From NCBI RefSeq assembly GCF_003991155.1, contig NZ_CP031293.1: a stretch of DNA of 64,000 nt; one strand, 5' to 3'. The position numbers were made by a program, and so were the translations under genes. The DNA is from Escherichia coli. Lineage in GTDB: Bacteria; Pseudomonadota; Gammaproteobacteria; Enterobacterales; Enterobacteriaceae. The stretch's first letter is position 1. Each line of letters begins with the position of its first letter. Below are positions 14,168-61,640 of the stretch, piece by piece. Below the pieces are notes generated by a model. The model saw only the letters and a list, made by a program, of their open reading frames with translations, was not told the origin of the DNA and did not search any database.

Positions 14168-14179
14168 CACGCTACCGCC
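14168..14179 (-). promoter_or_regulatory. ops element (GGCGGTAGCGTG) in wza leader
   Basis: Reverse complement of 14168-14179 is GGCGGTAGCGTG, the RfaH-recruiting ops consensus, upstream of wza on the minus strand. Confidence 0.7.
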
Positions 14180-14647
14180 CCTGGCTTTTTAGCTACCAAT
14201 ACACTGATTTAGCTTAATTTTTAAAACCCTCTCAACATACAGTCGTTGATGAGAAAGGGTTATTGCGGAAATTAACTTCCGAATATAAGGTGACATTATG
14301 GTAATTGAATATTGGCTCTCCAATAATGCAGGAGGAAGTGTTACAGCTAACGGAATAGCAGGCAAGGTAACAATTCGGCAATTGGCTATTTTTAAGAATT
14401 ATATTAAGTGTCATTCAATATGGTTTTTAGGAGTTTCTTTAGGTTGACAATATTTAATATAGTGTCTCCACATGCGATATTTCTTAAATAATGTTTTATT
14501 ATTACCACTTTTAATTCAGGGATAATGTGAGGTTATAACCCTCAAATAATATGAGATAAATAGTGCTGCAACATTGCATTTTTGCCCCGATTTATCCATG
14601 ATCGAATTGTGACATTTGTCATACAACGAATAGGTTTTGTACTTACT

Positions 14648-29695: not shown

Positions 29696-29724
29696 TTGAC
29701 ACTAAGGGCGGAGTGACATAATTT
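29696..29724 (+). promoter_or_regulatory. sigma70-like promoter of first Sib RNA
   Basis: ttgaca (29696-29701), 17-nt spacer, taattt (29719-29724); equivalent ttgaca-N17-tacttt recurs in each later repeat (e.g. 30031-30059). Confidence 0.5.
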
Positions 29725-29730
29725 CAGGAG

Positions 29731-29877
29731 TGAGGGTTAGGGAGAGGTTTCCCCCTCCCCCTGGTGTTCTTAGTAAGCCTGGAAGCTAATCACTAAGAGT
29801 ATCACCAGTATGATGACGTGCTTCATCATAACCCTTTCCTTATTAAAAGTCCTCTTCTCCGGGAGAGGGTTTCCCGT
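29731..29877 (+). ncRNA. sib: Sib antisense RNA, copy 1 (approximate ends)
   Basis: Antisense to ibs copy 1, between the promoter and a GC hairpin plus T-rich tract (~29855-29880); ends inferred from recalled K-12 sibA geometry. Confidence 0.55.
29770..29829 (-). CDS. ibs: Ibs type I toxin peptide, copy 1 (MMKHVIILVILLVISFQAY)
   Basis: 19-codon minus-strand ORF read by hand; hydrophobic peptide matching the Ibs family; too short for the ORF track. Confidence 0.75.
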   Translation of the reverse strand: MMKHVIILVILLVISFQAY

Positions 29878-30065
29878 TTCAGCGTCCCGCTGAAATCGTC
29901 GGCTTACCTCCTTTCGCCCTGAATGCAGTCTATCGCTAACGCGTGAACAAAATAGTTTCCTCTGTGATTATTGCGTAACGTCTCGCAAAGAATATTTGCT
30001 GGCAGGATCGCAGACTACAAAGCCTGCGGATTGACAATCTGATTGTGAAGGCATACTTTCAGGAG

Positions 30066-30205
30066 TGAGGGTAGAGCGGGGTTTCCCCCGCCCTGGTAGT
30101 CTTAGTAAGCGGGGAAGCTTATGACTAAGAGCACCACGATGATGAGTATCTTCATCATGACCCTTTCCTTATTTAAGGCCCCTTCCTCGGGAGGGGCTTT
30201 CCCGT
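30066..30205 (+). ncRNA. sib: Sib antisense RNA, copy 2 (approximate ends)
   Basis: Promoter ttgaca 30031-30036 / tacttt 30054-30059; terminator hairpin ~30177-30207. Confidence 0.55.
30102..30158 (-). CDS. ibs: Ibs type I toxin peptide, copy 2 (MMKILIIVVLLVISFPAY)
   Basis: 18-codon minus-strand ORF read by hand. Confidence 0.75.
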   Translation of the reverse strand: MMKILIIVVLLVISFPAY

Positions 30206-30393
30206 TTCAGCGTCCCGCTGAAATCGTCGGCCTACCTCCTTTTGCCCTGAATACAGTCTATCGCTAACGCGTGAACAAAATAGTTTCCTCTGTGATTATT
30301 GCGTAACGTCTCGCAAAGAATATTTGCTGGCAGGATCGCAGACTACAAAGCCTGCGGATTGACAATCTGATTGTGAAGGCATACTTTCAGGAG

Positions 30394-30533
30394 TGAGGGT
30401 AGAGCGGGGTTTCCCCCGCCCTGGTAGTCTTAGTAAGCGGGGAAGCTTATGACTAAGAGCACCACGATGATGAGTATCTTCATCATGACCCTTTCCTTAT
30501 TTAAGGCCCCTTCCTCGGGAGGGGCTTTCCCGT
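30394..30533 (+). ncRNA. sib: Sib antisense RNA, copy 3 (approximate ends)
   Basis: Same repeat architecture, 328 bp downstream of copy 2. Confidence 0.55.
30430..30486 (-). CDS. ibs: Ibs type I toxin peptide, copy 3 (MMKILIIVVLLVISFPAY)
   Basis: 18-codon ORF identical to copy 2. Confidence 0.75.
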   Translation of the reverse strand: MMKILIIVVLLVISFPAY

Positions 30534-30721
30534 TTCAGCGTCCCGCTGAAATCGTCGGCCTACCTCCTTTTGCCCTGAATACAGTCTATCGCTAACGCGT
30601 GAACAAAATAGTTTCCCCTGTGATTATTGCGTAACGACTCGCAAAGAATATTTGCTGGCAGGATCGCAGACTACAAAGCCTGCGGATTGACAATCTGATT
30701 GTGAAGGCATACTTTCAGGAG

Positions 30722-30861
30722 TGAGGGTAGAGCGGGGTTTCCCCCGCCCTGGTAGTCTTAGTAAGCCGGGAAGCTTATGACTAAGAGCACCACGATGATG
30801 ATCCACTTCATCATGACCCTTTCCTTATTTAAGGCCCCTTCCTCGGGAGGGGCTTTCCCGT
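30722..30861 (+). ncRNA. sib: Sib antisense RNA, copy 4 (approximate ends)
   Basis: Same repeat architecture. Confidence 0.55.
30758..30814 (-). CDS. ibs: Ibs type I toxin peptide, copy 4 (MMKWIIIVVLLVISFPAY)
   Basis: 18-codon minus-strand ORF read by hand. Confidence 0.75.
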   Translation of the reverse strand: MMKWIIIVVLLVISFPAY

Positions 30862-31049
30862 TTCAGCGTCCCGCTGAAATCATCGGCTTACCTCCTTTCG
30901 CCCTGAATGCAGTCTATCGCTGACTTGCGGATAAAATAGTTTCACATGTGATTATTGCGTGACGTCTCGCAAAGAATATTTGCTGGCAGGATCGCAGACT
31001 GCAAAGCCTGCGGATTGACAATCGGACCGTGAAGGCATACTTTCAGGAG

Positions 31050-31189
31050 TGAGGGTAGAGCGGGGTTTCCCCCGCCCTGGTAGTCTTAGTATGCTGGGTA
31101 GCTAATCACTAAGAGCACCACGATGATGAGTAGCTTCATCATGACCCTTTCCTTATTTAAGGCCCCTTCCTCGGGAGGGGCTTTCCCGT
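31050..31189 (+). ncRNA. sib: Sib antisense RNA, copy 5 (approximate ends)
   Basis: Same repeat architecture. Confidence 0.55.
31086..31142 (-). CDS. ibs: Ibs type I toxin peptide, copy 5 (MMKLLIIVVLLVISYPAY)
   Basis: 18-codon minus-strand ORF read by hand. Confidence 0.75.
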   Translation of the reverse strand: MMKLLIIVVLLVISYPAY

Positions 31190-40284: not shown

Positions 40285-41684
40285 AGTTCTGGCGACCCGG
40301 TATTACCGGCAAACTGTTTCTGGCGATTTTCGCCACCTGCATTGTCTTGCTGATCAGTATGCACTGGGCGGTGCGTATCAGTTTTGAGCGTGGCTTTATT
40401 GATTACATCAAGCATGGTAATGAACAACGGCTGCAAATGCTCGGCGATGCGCTTGGTGAGCAGTACGCCCAGCACGGGAACTGGCGCTTCCTGCGTAATA
40501 ACGATCGCTTTGTATTTCAGATCCTACGTTCGCTGGAGCATGATAACAACGAAGATAAGCCCGGCCCCGGTATGCCGCCACACGGCTGGCGCACGCAATT
40601 CTGGGTGGTTGATCAAAACAACAAAGTGCTGGTTGGCCCGCGAGCACCGATTCCACCAGACGGCACACGGCGGCCCATTATGGTCAATGGGGCGGAAGTG
40701 GGTGCGGTGATCGCCTCCCCTGTTGAACGACTGACCCGCAATACCGATATCAATTTTGACAGACAACAGAGGCAAACCAGTTGGCTGATTGTCGCTTTAT
40801 CTACCTTGTTAGCGGCGCTGGCGACATTCCCACTGGCGCGCGGTTTGCTGGCTCCGGTCAAACGACTGGTGGACGGTACACACAAACTGGCAGCGGGCGA
40901 TTTCACTACTCGCGTAGCCCCCACCAGCGAAGATGAGTTGGGCAGACTGGCAGAGGATTTCAATCAACTCGCCAGCACACTGGAGAAAAACCAGCAGATG
41001 CGCCGCGATTTTATGGCCGATATCTCCCACGAGCTGCGCACGCCTTTAGCGGTACTGCGCGGCGAACTGGAAGCTATTCAGGATGGCGTGCGTAAATTCA
41101 CGCCGGAGACGGTGGCTTCTTTACAGGCAGAGGTCGGTACACTGACCAAACTGGTGGATGATCTTCATCAATTGTCGATGTCTGATGAAGGCGCTCTCGC
41201 CTATCAAAAAGCACCGGTAGATTTGATCCCACTGCTGGAAGTGGCGGGCGGCGCATTTCGCGAACGATTCGCCAGCCGTGGCCTGAAACTGCAATTTTCC
41301 CTGCCAGACAGTATTACCGTATTTGGCGATCGCGACCGTTTAATGCAGTTATTCAATAACTTACTGGAAAACAGCCTGCGCTACACTGATAGCGGCGGTA
41401 GCCTGAAAATCTCTGCCGAGCAGCACGACAAAACGGTGCGCCTGACCTTTGCCGACAGTGCACCGGGCGTTAGTGACGATCAACTGGAAAAATTGTTTGA
41501 GCGTTTTTATCGCACCGAAGGTTCCCGCAACCGTGCCAGCGGCGGTTCCGGCTTGGGGCTGGCGATTTGTCTTAACATTGTTGAAGCACATAATGGTCGC
41601 ATTGTTGCCGCTCATTCGCCTTTTGGCGGGGTAAGCATTACAGTAGAGTTACCGCTGGAACGGGATTTACAGAGAGAAGTATGA
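40281..41684 (+). CDS. baeS: envelope-stress sensor histidine kinase
   Basis: 467-aa ORF; H-box ([10 protein letters not shown]), HATPase G-boxes; ATGA overlap with mdtD. Confidence 0.95.
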
Positions 41685-42915: not shown

Positions 42916-43168
42916 TTACGATGCCGGGCGTGGGTTGTTGGCGTCCGGCTTTATATCAAAACAACTCTTAGTTATTGATAATTAAGATTAACCTCCGCCA
43001 TTAAAATAGTGGGCACTGACGAGCACTCGTTGTGCTTTCTTTGTTTACCATCCCATACTTATCTTCCTGAACATGTTCATATGCCAAAATATCTTCTAAT
43101 ACTTTCGTGACGCTATCCGGTTTATGAAATACACTGATGTAAGATTTTTACTTACAGGCGGGTGTAAA

Positions 43169-43420
43169 ATGGCCAGAACGATGACGGTTGATCTCGGCGA
43201 TGAGTTGCGTGAATTTATCGAGTCCTTAATTGAATCCGGCGACTATCGCACCCAAAGCGAAGTGATCCGTGAGTCGCTGCGCTTACTTCGAGAAAAGCAA
43301 GCAGAGTCTCGCCTGCAAGCGTTACGTGACATGCTCGCTGAAGGGTTGAGTAGTGGTGAAGCTCAGCCGTGGGAAAAGGACGCGTTTTTACGGAAGGTGA
43401 AAGCAGGGATAAGGAAATAA
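43169..43420 (+). CDS. ParD-like antitoxin (ribbon-helix-helix)
   Basis: MARTMTVDLGDELREFIESLIESGDYRTQSEVIRESLRLL... typical of ParD/COG3609-type antitoxins; the start is uncertain (alternative in-frame starts at 43124 and 43181). Confidence 0.65.
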   Translation: MARTMTVDLGDELREFIESLIESGDYRTQSEVIRESLRLLREKQAESRLQALRDMLAEGLSSGEAQPWEKDAFLRKVKAGIRK

Positions 43421-43421
43421 T

Positions 43422-43718
43422 GTGCGTACTATAAAACTCATGCCAAAAGCCAATGAGGATTTAGAAGGCATCTGGTATTACAGCTATCACCATTTCGGCG
43501 AACCACAAGCCGACAGATATGTGGAACATCTTTCAGACGTTCTCCAGATTCTGAGTAACAATAATATAGGTACGCCCAGACCTGAATTAGGCGAAGGTAT
43601 TTTTGTTCTTCCTTTTGAACGCCACGTAATTTATTTCCTGCAATCGCCAGAGGAAATTATCGTCATTCGTATCCTTAACCAAAACCAGGACGCCTCCAGA
43701 CATTTACACTGGAGCTAA
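43422..43718 (+). CDS. ParE-like toxin (RelE/ParE superfamily)
   Basis: GTG start 2 nt after antitoxin stop with aagga SD; N-terminal LMPKANEDLEGIWYY motif characteristic of ParE. Confidence 0.65.
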   Translation: MRTIKLMPKANEDLEGIWYYSYHHFGEPQADRYVEHLSDVLQILSNNNIGTPRPELGEGIFVLPFERHVIYFLQSPEEIIVIRILNQNQDASRHLHWS

Positions 43719-45182: not shown

Positions 45183-45266
45183 TTAATTTCGATTATTTTT
45201 CCCGGATGGAAAATTCTTAGAAACCGATCACATACAGCTGCATTTATTAAGGTTATCATCCGTTTC

Positions 45267-45353
45267 GCTGAAAAACATAACCCATAAAATGCTAGCTGTA
45301 CCAGGAACCACCTCCTTAGCCTGTGTAATCTCCCTTACACGGGCTTATTTTTT
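45267..45353 (+). ncRNA. cyaR: CyaR (RyeE) Hfq-dependent sRNA
   Basis: 87 nt gctgaaaaacataacccataaaatgctagctgtaccaggaaccacctcc...cacgggcttattttttt matches the CyaR sequence as I recall it, ending in a terminator hairpin plus U-run. Confidence 0.85.
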
Positions 45354-45511
45354 ATGCATAAGCCCTATCTCTGGTAACCGTCTTCCATTGACCACATCGA
45401 TAGAATCTCCCTTCATAGCACGATGCCTTTCACTTATTGGCATCGTGCTCGCACAGGTTCCGGTTACGCACAGCCAGAACGCGCATGTTTGACGCTTACC
45501 AAAAAATATTC

Positions 45512-45829
45512 TCACTCTCCACATTTGAATGTCAGACGAGCGACGCCATGTAATCCTGCACCTTCTGTCTTCAATTTAACTATCTGCATTTTTTTGCCCT
45601 GTGTAACACAGAAATGAACTGCATCATTTTTTACTATATTTTCTGCACCAGATATTCTACCCCTGGCTAAAGAAGCTTCGGCTTCGGTGTAGTATTGGTT
45701 ATCGAGTTTACGCTGAATATTACTTTTATATGCAAGACCAAATTTACCGATACTTGTCTCATCATTATGTACAGCACACCCAGACATAAGAAAAACACTA
45801 ATTAATGATATAGCAGCTATCTTTTTCAT
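45512..45829 (-). CDS. yegR: lipoprotein-like small protein
   Basis: ORF-track entry trimmed to MKKIAAISLISVFLMSGC... (signal peptide with lipobox), GGGGAAGG SD upstream. Confidence 0.8.
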   Translation of the reverse strand: MKKIAAISLISVFLMSGCAVHNDETSIGKFGLAYKSNIQRKLDNQYYTEAEASLARGRISGAENIVKNDAVHFCVTQGKKMQIVKLKTEGAGLHGVARLTFKCGE

Positions 45830-46244
45830 CTTACCTTCCCCCATTAAATACCAACGACACGCTCTGGTGTTTAAATATAATAATGGCATGATTATTATAA
45901 TTGAATAGGATTATAATAAATGTTCTGTACAACATTTCCTACATAAGTAGGAATTACATACACGGATGCCCTTCCGGGTAACCCCATGGGGGGGGGGTAA
46001 TATATTTTTAATAGTAGATTGAAGATGCCACTGTTTAGTTGAATATTAGGTATATGCTCTTTTTTGAAATTTATCGGTGGCTGCCGTTAATATTCGCTGT
46101 TCCCATTGCAAGCTCCTGGTGGTAACCACTGAATCCCCATACCTGAACTGACTTTTTATCCTCCGACTTTCATCCTGTTCTGACTCCACCTTTTCTTTTC
46201 TGCTCTACACTATCTACAGACCAATCATAAAGGCACATACGATC

Positions 46245-47144
46245 ATGGCAGAATTTCCCGCCAGCTTACTGATTCTTAATGGCAAAAGTACTGACAATCT
46301 ACCCTTGCGCGAAGCAATTATGCTGTTGCGTGAGGAAGGAATGACGATCCATGTGCGGGTCACCTGGGAGAAAGGCGATGCCGCACGATATGTAGAGGAG
46401 GCCCGGAAGTTGGGCGTCGCAACGGTGATTGCCGGTGGTGGCGATGGCACCATTAATGAAGTTTCTACGGCGTTGATTCAGTGTGAGGGGGATGACATAC
46501 CCGCGCTGGGAATTTTGCCATTAGGAACCGCCAATGATTTTGCCACCAGTGTAGGGATTCCTGAGGCACTGGATAAGGCGCTGAAACTGGCAATTGCCGG
46601 TAACGCCATTGCAATAGATATGGCGCAGGTCAACAAACAAACCTGTTTTATTAATATGGCGACAGGCGGATTTGGGACGCGTATTACCACAGAAACGCCG
46701 GAAAAATTAAAAGCCGCGCTGGGTGGCGTCTCTTACATCATTCATGGCTTAATGCGCATGGATACTCTGCAACCGGACCGTTGTGAAATCCGCGGTGAAA
46801 ACTTTCACTGGCAAGGTGACGCCCTGGTCATTGGTATTGGTAACGGGCGTCAGGCTGGTGGCGGTCAGCAATTGTGCCCGAACGCGTTAATTAACGATGG
46901 CTTGCTGCAACTGCGCATTTTTACCGGCGATGAAATTCTTCCGGCTCTCGTATCAACCTTAAAATCTGACGAAGATAACCCGAATATTATCGAAGGCGCT
47001 TCGTCGTGGTTTGATATACAAGCCCCACACGAAATCACTTTTAATCTTGATGGCGAACCGTTGAGCGGACAAAACTTTCATATTGAAATACTTCCGGCGG
47101 CGTTGCGTTGTCGATTACCACCGGATTGTCCATTATTGCGTTAA
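46245..47144 (+). CDS. yegS: lipid kinase (DAG-kinase catalytic family)
   Basis: 299-aa [21 protein letters not shown]... GGDGT motif ([10 protein letters not shown]). Confidence 0.92.
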
Positions 47145-47164: not shown

Positions 47165-47220
47165 CCAGGGAAAATCCGTAATGCCGGATGCGGTGTAAAC
47201 AACTTATCCGGCATACAGAA
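47165..47220. repeat. REP-like palindromic element
   Basis: tgccggatgcggtgtaaacaacttatccggcat motif between yegS and gatR. Confidence 0.5.
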
Positions 47221-47225
47221 CAATA

Positions 47226-48005
47226 CTACACCGTAATTAATTTCACTCGTGTCTTCTGCAATGCCAGTTTATCCACCTCTGACACAGCATCGTCGGTAAT
47301 AATAATGTCAATTTTTTCGATTGGCAGTACCTGATTAAAACCGCGACGATTAAATTTCGATGAATCGAGAACGGCAATCACTTTATTTGCGGCTGTGACC
47401 ATCGCCCCGCTAATCGAATAGCCTTCATTAAAGGTCGTAATACCATTAACCGCATCAATACCATCAGCACCGACAAACATTAAATCGGCATTAATATCCT
47501 GCAATGAACGCTCAGCAATGGAGCCATGCATCGAGCGCGTTTTATGGCGGACCGTGCCACCGCAGACGACCAGAGTAATGTCTTTATTTTCGGAAAGGGC
47601 AAATGCTGCCGGGAGACTGTTGGTAATCACCGTGATATTTTTGGCGGTCATTAATCCTTCGGCGATAAGCATTGTCGTACTTCCGCTGTCGAGAATAACG
47701 GTCATCCCTTCGTGGATCATTTTGACTGCCGCCTGCGCTATTCTGTTTTTTGGCGCGCTGGCGAGCTGAAATCGCTCTTTAAACCCGACTTCCTGGGTCT
47801 CGGTTTCACTATTACCGGACATTATTTTCGCCGCACCGCCATGAAAGCGCGTAACCACGCCTTTTTGTTCGAGAAAGCGCAAATCGGCACGGATTGTCGC
47901 TTCCGAGGCAGCAAATACTCCCGCCAGATCCTGAACAAGCACGGTTCCCTGTTCATTCACTAATTGGATGATCTTATTCCTTCGCTCGAATGAATTCATC
48001 GTCAT
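47226..48005 (-). CDS. gatR: DeoR-family repressor of galactitol operon (intact)
   Basis: Uninterrupted 259-aa ORF with N-terminal HTH and DeoR sugar-binding domain; the true start may be the third codon (MNSFERR...). Confidence 0.88.
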   Translation of the reverse strand: MTMNSFERRNKIIQLVNEQGTVLVQDLAGVFAASEATIRADLRFLEQKGVVTRFHGGAAKIMSGNSETETQEVGFKERFQLASAPKNRIAQAAVKMIHEGMTVILDSGSTTMLIAEGLMTAKNITVITNSLPAAFALSENKDITLVVCGGTVRHKTRSMHGSIAERSLQDINADLMFVGADGIDAVNGITTFNEGYSISGAMVTAANKVIAVLDSSKFNRRGFNQVLPIEKIDIIITDDAVSEVDKLALQKTRVKLITV

Positions 48006-48104
48006 TTACCCATATTCAATTGTGGCTAGTGTAAACGAAGGGGGACCATTGGTGAATGATCTGTTTTGCACAATACCGGGCCAGCATCACGCTGGCCCGC
48101 GGTT

Positions 48105-49145
48105 TCAGGGAATGAGCAACACTTTGCCCGGCATAGCATTACGAGCGATGTCACGCACCGCCTGGGCGAAGCTTTCAAAGCTTCCACGGTGAGCGATTAA
48201 TGGCTCCAGGCTTAACTTACGTTCTGTCAGCAACCGACTCGCCGTTTCCCACTCCTGCCCCGGCCAAGGGCTGGAGTAGTTCATCCAACTGCCGATAACC
48301 GTCAGCTCTTTACGTAATATTTTGCCAAACGTTGTCGATGTTAAATGCAGATCCTGATGCAACGTGCCCACCAGCGTCAGCTGGGCATGAGGCCCGGCAA
48401 TCTCTACCGCCAGTTCGACGGTTTGCGGGACGCCAGCCGTCTCGAGGATAAGCTGATTAAAGCGCAGCTCGCGTAAAACGCCCTGCATTTGCGGCGCGCT
48501 CATTTCAAGGCTGTTAAATGTTTGCATCGCACCGAAAGATTTTGCCAGTGCCAGTTTTTCTGAGCTAATGTCGATTGCCGTCACACTCTTTGCTCCCAGC
48601 GCGACAGCGCACTGAATGGCCAGCAGGCCAATGGTTCCGGCACCAATAATAATAACGTTTTTATTCTCACATCCTTGCGCTAAATGGAACGCATGCAGGC
48701 CAACGGTAATCGGTTCAATAAAAGCGCCATCCTCAATAGGCATATCCGCAGGTAGTGCAAAGACATTGTTTCGCTTAACGACAATATATTCGGCAAATCC
48801 ACCATCACGCCGTGAGCCAATAAAATCATATTTTGCGCACTGGGAATAAAACCCTTTCAGACACTCTGGACAAGTAAAACAGGGTAATAACGGCACACAG
48901 GCAACCGCATCGCCGGGGTGTAAATCATCAACACCGGATCCCACCGCATCAATATAGCCGCTAAATTCATGGCCTAACGTTATTGGATAATAATGTGCAC
49001 CATTTTTAAATATCCTGGGTAAATCGGAACCACATAAGCCCGAGCTTGCAATTTTTACCCGCACCTCATCCTGATGTTTAATTTCAGGAATGACGCTTTC
49101 TGCAACGCGCACGATACCATCAGTATCATTCACCACTGATTTCAT
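48105..49145 (-). CDS. gatD: galactitol-1-phosphate 5-dehydrogenase
   Basis: 346-aa Zn-dependent MDR dehydrogenase, MKSVVNDTDGIVRVAE... Confidence 0.93.
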   Translation of the reverse strand: MKSVVNDTDGIVRVAESVIPEIKHQDEVRVKIASSGLCGSDLPRIFKNGAHYYPITLGHEFSGYIDAVGSGVDDLHPGDAVACVPLLPCFTCPECLKGFYSQCAKYDFIGSRRDGGFAEYIVVKRNNVFALPADMPIEDGAFIEPITVGLHAFHLAQGCENKNVIIIGAGTIGLLAIQCAVALGAKSVTAIDISSEKLALAKSFGAMQTFNSLEMSAPQMQGVLRELRFNQLILETAGVPQTVELAVEIAGPHAQLTLVGTLHQDLHLTSTTFGKILRKELTVIGSWMNYSSPWPGQEWETASRLLTERKLSLEPLIAHRGSFESFAQAVRDIARNAMPGKVLLIP

Positions 49146-49192
49146 AAAAACTCCTGATTGTTAAGGGGGATTACCTCCCCCTCAGGTAAAAA

Positions 49193-50548
49193 TTATTCTG
49201 CGAGAACGGCTTTCTCTTGTTTAATAAAACCACGCGCTCTACGCCAGGTCATGAAAATACCGGTCAGATAAATTGCGCCGATAATAATGAAACCGGGAAT
49301 ATTTTGCGGGGAGAAAACCTGAATCAGTAACCAGGTAATGGGAGAACCGCCCTGATCCATTGAAGCCACCATACCCCCGGCTTTTAACGCGCCCGCATTA
49401 GCCGCCAGTTGGGTGTGCAAACCAATAGTTTGCGTAGCGATCCACAGGGTGATGCTCATAATGATGACACCCGAGATTAAGGTGCGGAACAGATTTCCAC
49501 GATGCACCGCGACCGCCATCGCCACAAAGAAGCCGATGGTGGCAAGGTCGCCAAACGGCAGCACCTGATTACCCGGCACACAAACAGCAATTAAAATGGT
49601 GAGCGGGATAAAAATCAGGCTTGCCGATACCACTGCCGTATGCCCCAGCAACAACGCCGGATCAAGGCCAATCAGGAACTCCTGACCGCCGAACTTCGCC
49701 TGTAAACGACTACGGGCCTGCTTAGCGATGGGCGTTAAACCATCCATGATAGGTTTAATCACCCGTGGCATCAGCAGCATAACTGCCGCCGTTTTTACCG
49801 CCAGCTGCAATACACCTTTGACATCGTAACCCGCAAGGATGCCGATAATCAGCCCCATCACAAAACCCACGGTGACCGGTTCGCCAAAAGGGCCAAATTT
49901 GCGCTGAATATCATCGGCGCTAAATTTAATTCGGTTAACGCCTGGGATTTTCTCGATGATAGCATCGACCAGCACCGCAATCGGCCCCATATACGCCGAC
50001 GTACCGTGCGGAATAGCAATGCCTTCCAGCTCAAAGAAATTTCGGGTATCGCGGGCAAACCAGTCGCCGAGCTTATAAACAAACGCCGCGTGAATTACCA
50101 CACCCGCCATCCCTATCATCCATGAACCGGTTGCCAGATGCAGCAACGCGCCGGTGAAGGTCATATGCCAGATATTCCAGATATCAACATTTACCACCCG
50201 CGTCATACGGGTCAGTAACATCGCCACGTTAACCAGAATCGCAATCGGAATCGCCACCAGCGCAATTTGCGACGCCCAGGTCATGGGTGAAGAGCCCGGC
50301 CAGCCGACATCGACCACATGCAGATTCAGGTCGAAATTTTCCGCCATCGCTTTCGCCGCCGGACCAATGGAATCCAGCATTAAGCCAATCACAAGGCCAA
50401 TGCCAACAAAGCCAATCCCGATATGCAGACCCGCTTTAAAGCAATCGCCTGCCTTCATGCCTAATATTTTAGAAAAAATAATGATGACAATCGGCAGCAT
50501 CACCGTAGGGCCGAGGTCGAGAATATAACGCATGACTTCTGAAAACAT
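49193..50548 (-). CDS. gatC: PTS galactitol-specific EIIC
   Basis: 451-aa polytopic membrane ORF. Confidence 0.93.
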   Translation of the reverse strand: MFSEVMRYILDLGPTVMLPIVIIIFSKILGMKAGDCFKAGLHIGIGFVGIGLVIGLMLDSIGPAAKAMAENFDLNLHVVDVGWPGSSPMTWASQIALVAIPIAILVNVAMLLTRMTRVVNVDIWNIWHMTFTGALLHLATGSWMIGMAGVVIHAAFVYKLGDWFARDTRNFFELEGIAIPHGTSAYMGPIAVLVDAIIEKIPGVNRIKFSADDIQRKFGPFGEPVTVGFVMGLIIGILAGYDVKGVLQLAVKTAAVMLLMPRVIKPIMDGLTPIAKQARSRLQAKFGGQEFLIGLDPALLLGHTAVVSASLIFIPLTILIAVCVPGNQVLPFGDLATIGFFVAMAVAVHRGNLFRTLISGVIIMSITLWIATQTIGLHTQLAANAGALKAGGMVASMDQGGSPITWLLIQVFSPQNIPGFIIIGAIYLTGIFMTWRRARGFIKQEKAVLAE

Positions 50549-50551
50549 AGG

Positions 50552-50836
50552 TCACCCCTGTAAGATAGTCAGAATTTTATTTTGTAATGCTTCGATACCG
50601 ACACCAGAAACAAAAGGCATGCCGTGAACTAACGGAATATTGCCAAAACTACGATCTACCCTGGCAGTGGTGCATATCAAATGCACGCCATCCATATAGG
50701 TTTCTATTTCATTAACCCGACACTGGATTAATTCAACAGGAATATTATGACTCTGACACAACTCTTTAATTTCTTCCGCCGCCATCGTAGAGGTCGCAAC
50801 CGCACCTCCGCAAGCGACAATAATTTTGCGTTTCAT
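50552..50836 (-). CDS. gatB: PTS galactitol-specific EIIB
   Basis: 94-aa [25 protein letters not shown]... Confidence 0.93.
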
Positions 50837-50866
50837 AAATAGTCCTTTTTATTGTTACAGAGGGAT

Positions 50867-51319
50867 TTATTCGTCTGAATCTAAAACATACTTTGTGAAG
50901 TATTCCTTTAACTGGGTTTCAGGAAGAGTGATTAGTGTCTCGACGATATCGGGCTGTTGTAACTTGCCAAATAAACAGCGTAAAAGTTTCAATTGCTGCT
51001 GCGGATTTTCCACAATCAACGCAATAACCAACGATACCGCCACGTCGTTATCATCATCCGCTTGCTGAAAATGAACTTTATTTGTTGGCCTTAACAGATA
51101 AATGGCTGACGACTTAGCATGAATCGCCTCACAATGTGGTATTGCAATGGCGTGCTGCTCAAGCATTATCCCGGTAGGGAATTCTGCTTCTCTGGCAATT
51201 AATGCCTGTGGCCAGGTATCATGAACCACACCTTTCGCGAGCATCTCATTACCGATATGGGTTAAAACTTCGCTACGATCGACAAAAGAAATTCCGCTAC
51301 GAACAAACAGGTTAGTCAT
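50867..51319 (-). CDS. gatA: PTS galactitol-specific EIIA
   Basis: 150-aa ORF. Confidence 0.93.
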   Translation of the reverse strand: MTNLFVRSGISFVDRSEVLTHIGNEMLAKGVVHDTWPQALIAREAEFPTGIMLEQHAIAIPHCEAIHAKSSAIYLLRPTNKVHFQQADDDNDVAVSLVIALIVENPQQQLKLLRCLFGKLQQPDIVETLITLPETQLKEYFTKYVLDSDE

Positions 51320-51328
51320 ATACCGTCC

Positions 51329-53528
<2,200 letters not shown>

Positions 53529-53624
53529 TTAAATGTCGAGATAACGATCACAAAAACGACAATTCGAAAATTAATCAGAATGACAGGCAAAAAAACGGCC
53601 TCCCGATAGGGAAGCCGTAGCAAA

Positions 53625-53700
53625 GTGCGCGTGTTTTTATGCCGGATGCGACGTAAACGCCTTTTCCGTTATACGGGGTAGTGCTGTTCGTATAAGGCGT
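53625..53700. repeat. REP-like palindromic elements
   Basis: gccggatgcgacgtaaacgcc and flanking palindromes between gatY and fbaB. Confidence 0.45.
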
Positions 53701-61491: not shown

Positions 61492-61640
61492 AGTTTGCTC
61501 CTGCCATAACGTGAAGAAGCAATGACCTGGTGGTCCGTGACTTCCCTACGCTGGCATTATCCAGATCAGGTGATACGGGTATTTCTCAGCCTTCACGCAG
61601 AAGGGCACCCCGAGTCGTTTGGTTGAATCTCTATATTTTG
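61492..61640 (-). promoter_or_regulatory. TPP (thi-box) riboswitch in thiM leader
   Basis: Minus-strand leader contains GGGGUGCCCUUCUGCGUGAAGGCUGAGAAAUACCCGUAUCACCUGAUCUGGAUAAUGCCAGCGUAGGGAAGUCACGG... with CUGAGA thi-box and SD-sequestering stem. Confidence 0.85.

Follow-up and report, generated by a model that had tools for sequence, protein, structure and literature searches.

An uninterrupted gatR gene downstream of gatYZABCD in Escherichia coli and its probable role in control of the galactitol operon

Results

Organization of the gat locus

In the window (the whole 64-kb stretch of E. coli DNA that was analysed), the genes of the galactitol locus follow one another in the order yegS, gatR, gatD, gatC, gatB, gatA, gatZ, gatY and fbaB, as in annotated genomes (Table 1). 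The gatR gene lies directly downstream of gatYZABCD, is co-oriented with these genes and converges with yegS, and the same order is kept in strains HS, MG1655 and NCM3722. All six gat structural genes of the window have standard lengths and zero internal stops. Over 19.5 kb around gatR, the window differs from the 2016C-3878 chromosome (NZ_CP029747.1) by one base; this sole mismatch is at position 41487, inside baeS, with G in the window and C in NZ_CP029747.1.

Table 1 Coordinates of the gat locus and of other features in the window
Feature	Position	Strand	Remarks
JUMPstart element	14168-14206	-	Rfam, at gathering threshold
Sib antitoxin RNAs, five tandem copies	29696-31157	+	Upstream of mdtA, ~330 bp apart; Rfam RF00113, 139-150 bits each
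ParD antitoxin/ParE (RelE-family) toxin pair	about 43124-43718	+	Between yegP and yegQ; from the annotation of the identical strain
CyaR sRNA	45265-45350		
yegS	46245-47144	+	
REP-type hairpin	47175-47219	-	Between convergent gatR and yegS; -20.4 kcal/mol, z -3.3
gatR CDS	47226-48005	-	259 codons from first ATG; annotated start is the second ATG, 47999
DeoRC effector-sensing domain	47292-47753	-	Residues 85-238; PF00455, E 2.5e-51
Unoccupied IS3E target site	47701-47703		Single GTC, between codons Met101 and Thr102
HTH_DeoR DNA-binding domain	47826-47984	-	Residues 8-60; PF08220, E 1.3e-16
gatD-gatR spacer	48006-48104	-	99 bp; 100% identical in window, MG1655 and HS
GC-rich 9-bp hairpin, no U-tract	48077-48099	-	Just past gatD stop codon; -21.1 kcal/mol, z -2.3
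gatYZABCD structural genes	48105-53474	-	Target operon of the repressor; all full length
gatD	48105-49145	-	
gatC	49193-50548	-	Intact, 451 codons
gatB	50552-50836	-	
gatA	50867-51319	-	
gatZ	51329-52591	-	
gatY	52620-53474	-	
gatY promoter and regulatory region	53475-53594	-	Core invariant in 11 diverse E. coli alleles
TGTCGTTT, candidate GatR operator half-site	53485-53492	+	One arm of perfect inverted 8-mer
TGTCGTTT, candidate GatR operator half-site	53554-53561	-	Other arm of inverted 8-mer
REP copy-number polymorphism, fbaB 3' region	53620-53700		
TPP riboswitch upstream of thiM	61526-61622	-	Rfam, at gathering threshold

The conserved spacer between gatD and gatR presumably holds a weak promoter of gatR itself; alternatively, the gene may be transcribed by read-through from gatD. 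A consensus scan detected no sigma-70 match reaching its threshold in this spacer, and the scan gave only two hits, both within the coding region of gatR and no more than expected from shuffled sequence; the best sub-threshold promoter candidates by eye were TTCACC-17-TACACT (8/12) and TTTACA-15-TATGGG. The hairpin located just past the gatD stop codon may serve as a partial terminator or as an RNA-stabilising structure between gatD and gatR.

The gatR gene and its product

Counted from the first ATG, gatR is an uninterrupted open reading frame with zero internal stops, encoding MTMNSFERRNKII...KLITV. The second ATG is used as the start both in the RefSeq annotation of the identical 2016C-3878 sequence and in that of MG1655, which gives a product of 257 aa (WP_001295426.1 in RefSeq); a strong Shine-Dalgarno sequence precedes neither of these starts, and the choice between them leaves all of the conclusions unaffected. 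The product has the composition of the DeoR/GlpR family, namely, an N-terminal DeoR-type helix-turn-helix and a C-terminal DeoRC domain within a total length of ~250 aa, and its PF08220 score of 60.5 bits is well over the Pfam cut-off of 21. The two Pfam matches, HTH_DeoR and DeoRC, place this reading frame far beyond chance. The 259-aa uninterrupted DeoR-family gene described in the sequence-only reading was confirmed. The sole PDB sequence match to the product was the C-terminal domain of E. coli DeoR (7l6l, E 1.9e-11).

Public contigs that encode exactly this protein number at least 1000, and some sources label it "DeoR family galactitol utilization operon repressor", while PGAP assigns to it merely the name "DeoR/GlpR family DNA-binding transcription regulator". 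This generic name is explained by the absence of a GatR-specific model from NCBIfam, together with scores under the thresholds of the AgaR and SrlR models. The paralogous E. coli sugar/polyol repressors AgaR, SrlR (GutR) and GlpR have a two-domain architecture in common with GatR, and their full-length profiles match its sequence with 232.9, 226.3 and 111.7 bits, respectively; however, these scores are lower than the curated equivalog cut-offs of 260, 350 and 331 bits, and the paralogues differ from GatR in their genomic context and target operon. Since NCBIfam holds no GatR model, the assignment is based on the conserved gene order and on sequence identity with a tested allele rather than on a curated profile.

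Comparison with the K-12 allele and with strain HS

The annotations of MG1655 (NC_000913.3) and of a K-12 derivative show gatR as a pseudogene in two pieces, with IS3E between them. The MG1655 element has a length of 1258 bp and the ends TGATCTTACCCAGC...GTGGGTAGGATCA, is flanked by a 3-bp GTC duplication and is located between codons 101 and 102; therefore, the DNA-binding domain of the K-12 protein is parted from nearly all of its sensor domain. The insertion was named IS1 in one publication (PMC5850726), which is ruled out by the sequence and by the MG1655 annotation, both of which show IS3E. In the window, in contrast, the target site is empty, with a single GTC and no IS, which is not the gatR::IS3E allele of the K-12 MG1655/W3110 type. 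Reading of the frame and the alignment to the MG1655 gatR locus, which had been proposed as the check on the sequence-only reading, revealed no frameshift, stop or IS in the window copy of gatR.

Without IS3E and one of the two GTC copies, the MG1655 pseudogene (b4498) becomes a 780-nt gene that differs from that of the window at 16 positions (2.05%). All 16 of these nucleotide differences are synonymous, and the window GatR is therefore identical to the IS3-removed MG1655 GatR, with 0 amino-acid differences. The GatR of E. coli HS has the same RefSeq identifier (WP_001295426.1) and likewise 0 amino-acid differences from the window; at the nucleotide level, HS gatR matches the IS3-removed MG1655 gene exactly. 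The GatR of HS/EC3132-type wild strains thus has the amino-acid sequence found in the window, the same place downstream of gatD and an identical 99-bp upstream spacer, whereas HS and the window differ by the 16 synonymous substitutions in gatR and at about 10 positions of the gatY promoter allele. Additionally, the gatC gene of the MG1655 reference, which is intact in the window, is a frameshifted annotated pseudogene that is 2 bp longer, so the reference K-12 gat locus carries two lesions, not one.

Distribution of gatR alleles among E. coli genomes

The survey set consisted of 5426 complete RefSeq E. coli genomes. Any match to gatR was found in 5109 of them, and a contiguous match, defined as one unbroken stretch covering 80% or more of the gene, in 4756 (88%); the exact K-12 gatR::IS3 junction was present in 345 genomes, and about 317 had no gatR match. 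According to these counts (4756 vs 345 of 5426), intact gatR is the species norm, and the split allele is an oddity of a common laboratory lineage.

The gatY promoter and candidate operators

The gatY promoter has a -35 element TCGACA and a -10 element CATTAT (53539-53510), with a CRP-like site TGTGATCGTTATCTCG. Among 11 aligned alleles, the block ATTGTCGTTTTTGTGATCGTTATCTCGACAT, which comprises the CRP-like site and the -35 TCGACA, as well as the -10 CATTAT, GAAATCGAAA and AAACGACAGG, show little or no variation. The promoter is flanked by the two arms of a perfect inverted 8-mer, TGTCGTTT / AAACGACA. The TGTCGTTT 8-mer occurs five times in the 64-kb window, and two of these copies, in inverted orientation, are in the 130-bp promoter region; the upstream arm does not vary among the 11 E. 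coli alleles, and two of these alleles have a one-base change in the downstream arm. These arms are possible GatR operator half-sites, proposed here as candidates on the basis of their arrangement; no paper defining the GatR operators was found in the accessible literature.

A BLAST search of the 5426 genomes with the 126 bp upstream of gatY yielded 38 at ≥99% identity and 2557 at 80-90%. The promoter allele of the window (53475-53600) is therefore rare, although gatR is 95-99% identical almost everywhere. The low BLAST identities had suggested a "hypervariable" gat promoter; this description was downgraded, because the functional core is invariant in the 11-allele alignment. The differences among the 11 alleles cluster in ~25 bp straight after the fbaB terminator and at a few single sites. 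The window allele has one private change, A to T in GAAATCGAAA, just downstream of the -10 element, where 10 of the 11 aligned alleles have A; this change could alter an operator. A further change in the window allele, located upstream, creates TCG and is also present in one other allele.

The spacer between fbaB and gatY is 80 bp shorter in the window than in MG1655 and HS (227 vs 307 bp). Loss of operators through this shortening was considered and rejected, since the alignment attributes it to a 78-bp difference in REP copy number that lies upstream of the terminator of fbaB and not within the promoter. The REP polymorphism itself lies between the fbaB stop codon and the terminator, where 78 bp present in MG1655 and HS are missing from the window; downstream of fbaB, one REP copy is found in the window against several in HS.

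Discussion

The obtained data very probably describe the wild-type E. coli gatR, a DeoR/GlpR-family repressor gene encoded just downstream of gatYZABCD, together with the control circuit proposed below for the gat operon. In the absence of galactitol, the helix-turn-helix of GatR would most likely occupy operators at the gatY promoter, at positions deduced from the sequence, and transcription would be blocked. Entry of galactitol via the Gat PTS would supply a phosphorylated pathway intermediate that binds the DeoRC domain and thereby releases the repressor. Galactitol-1-phosphate, tagatose-6-phosphate and tagatose-1,6-bisphosphate are the candidates for such an effector, which in the literature is predicted only (PMC5540944).

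The functional evidence for this protein comes from strains with the same or a disrupted gene. Replacement of the MG1655 pseudogene with HS gatR resulted in a strain regulating its gat operon (Sousa et al. 2017; PMC5850726), and in mice, de novo IS insertions in the restored HS gatR led again to constitutive mutants (PMC5850726). Since HS carries the same protein and its gatR restored regulation, the window encodes a repressor of an exact sequence that works experimentally. Constitutive gat expression through gatR disruption has been reported in PMC5850726 and PMC3045373, and PMC9189660, citing Nobelmann & Lengeler 1996, describes it as well; the expression of gat was higher in MG1655 than in NCM3722, which was attributed to gatR disruption (PMC3045373). 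The earlier statement that an IS splits gatR in K-12 and makes gat constitutive is thus borne out for MG1655, with IS3E as the element. Moreover, in a CRISPRi screen, silencing of gatR produced a strong signal in two clinical strains, LF82 and CFT073, and none in MG1655 (bioRxiv 10.64898/2026.01.05.697630).

Our best prediction, which we regard as well supported, is that gat expression is regulated in the strain of the window, because its GatR is the functional HS protein, the six structural genes are full length, and both the promoter core and the candidate operators are conserved. The operon had been called "likely repressible" in the sequence-only reading, and the identity with HS GatR, the intact gat genes and the conserved promoter core speak well for this view.

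Two other explanations were weighed against this one. The repressor could be intact while regulation is altered, i.e., leaky, constitutive or hyper-repressed, owing to changes of the rare gatY promoter allele at or near the GatR operators; the occurrence of this allele at ≥99% identity in only 38 genomes, the A-to-T change that is private to the window in an otherwise almost constant GAAATCGAAA and the TCG-creating upstream change shared with one other allele would fit such an explanation. However, this allele leaves the -35 and -10 elements, the CRP-like site and the two TGTCGTTT arms intact, the bulk of promoter variation falls in the part of the spacer that directly follows the fbaB terminator, and both GatR and the spacer upstream of its gene show perfect conservation, as expected were the regulatory circuit still in use, so we consider altered regulation unlikely. 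The proposal that the rare allele, including the A-to-T change just downstream of the -10 element, retunes GatR control toward looser or tighter repression is likewise considered unlikely; if true, the allele would be a naturally occurring variant in regulation, at a locus on which selection in the gut is known to be strong and fluctuating.

According to the other explanation, the reading frame would encode a generic regulator of the DeoR family that controls some target other than gatYZABCD, the adjacency to gatD being incidental, in keeping with the generic PGAP name and with NCBIfam equivalog cut-offs that the product does not reach. At the same time, swapping or disrupting exactly this GatR protein toggles gat expression between the regulated and constitutive states (PMC5850726), and the position of gatR beside gatD is conserved in every genome examined, which makes this explanation highly improbable. 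The reading of the gene as wild-type gatR controlling gatYZABCD is accordingly preferred.

The intact gatR was also taken in the sequence-only reading as support for a non-K-12 origin. The K-12 strain NCM3722 (NZ_CP011495.1) has an uninterrupted gatR that encodes the same protein and is located beside the K-12-specific PR-X remnant ogrK, and intact gatR in this strain is also reported in PMC3045373. Intact gatR consequently excludes descent of the MG1655/W3110 type, not K-12 as such. The argument holds as one of likelihood, and its outcome is right on other evidence, but it is not diagnostic, given intact NCM3722 gatR and a species norm of 88%. Judged by sequence comparison, the window is non-K-12 on the grounds of its 2-4% nucleotide divergence from MG1655 in most gat genes (only 0.7% in gatA), the ParD/ParE pair, the lack of the PR-X remnant and its essential identity to a clinical isolate. 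The cryptic prophage PR-X remnant of MG1655 (ogrK, yegZ) was not found between cyaR and yegR in the window (45265-45830), and the same is true of HS. The ParD/ParE pair is missing at the yegP-yegQ position in MG1655, HS and NCM3722.

The intact gatR of the window is an ordinary wild-type copy of a kind already known, and nothing in it changes the knowledge of GatR. Its practical value is small: the galactitol pathway of the strain is predicted to be of the normal, regulated form, and a laboratory strain of the MG1655/W3110 type is excluded. During gut colonisation, selection acts on the gat locus in two ways: constitutive operons are lost, and regulated ones lose their gatR. As the locus is a well-studied target of selection, the gat regulatory state of a strain helps to predict its gut-colonisation behaviour.

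Several features outside the gat locus were recorded as well. The JUMPstart element and the TPP riboswitch are expected in such a chromosomal region. With five tandem Sib antitoxin RNA copies, compared with only two Ibs toxin genes annotated at this locus in HS, the strain of the window has an expanded Ibs/Sib type I toxin-antitoxin array.
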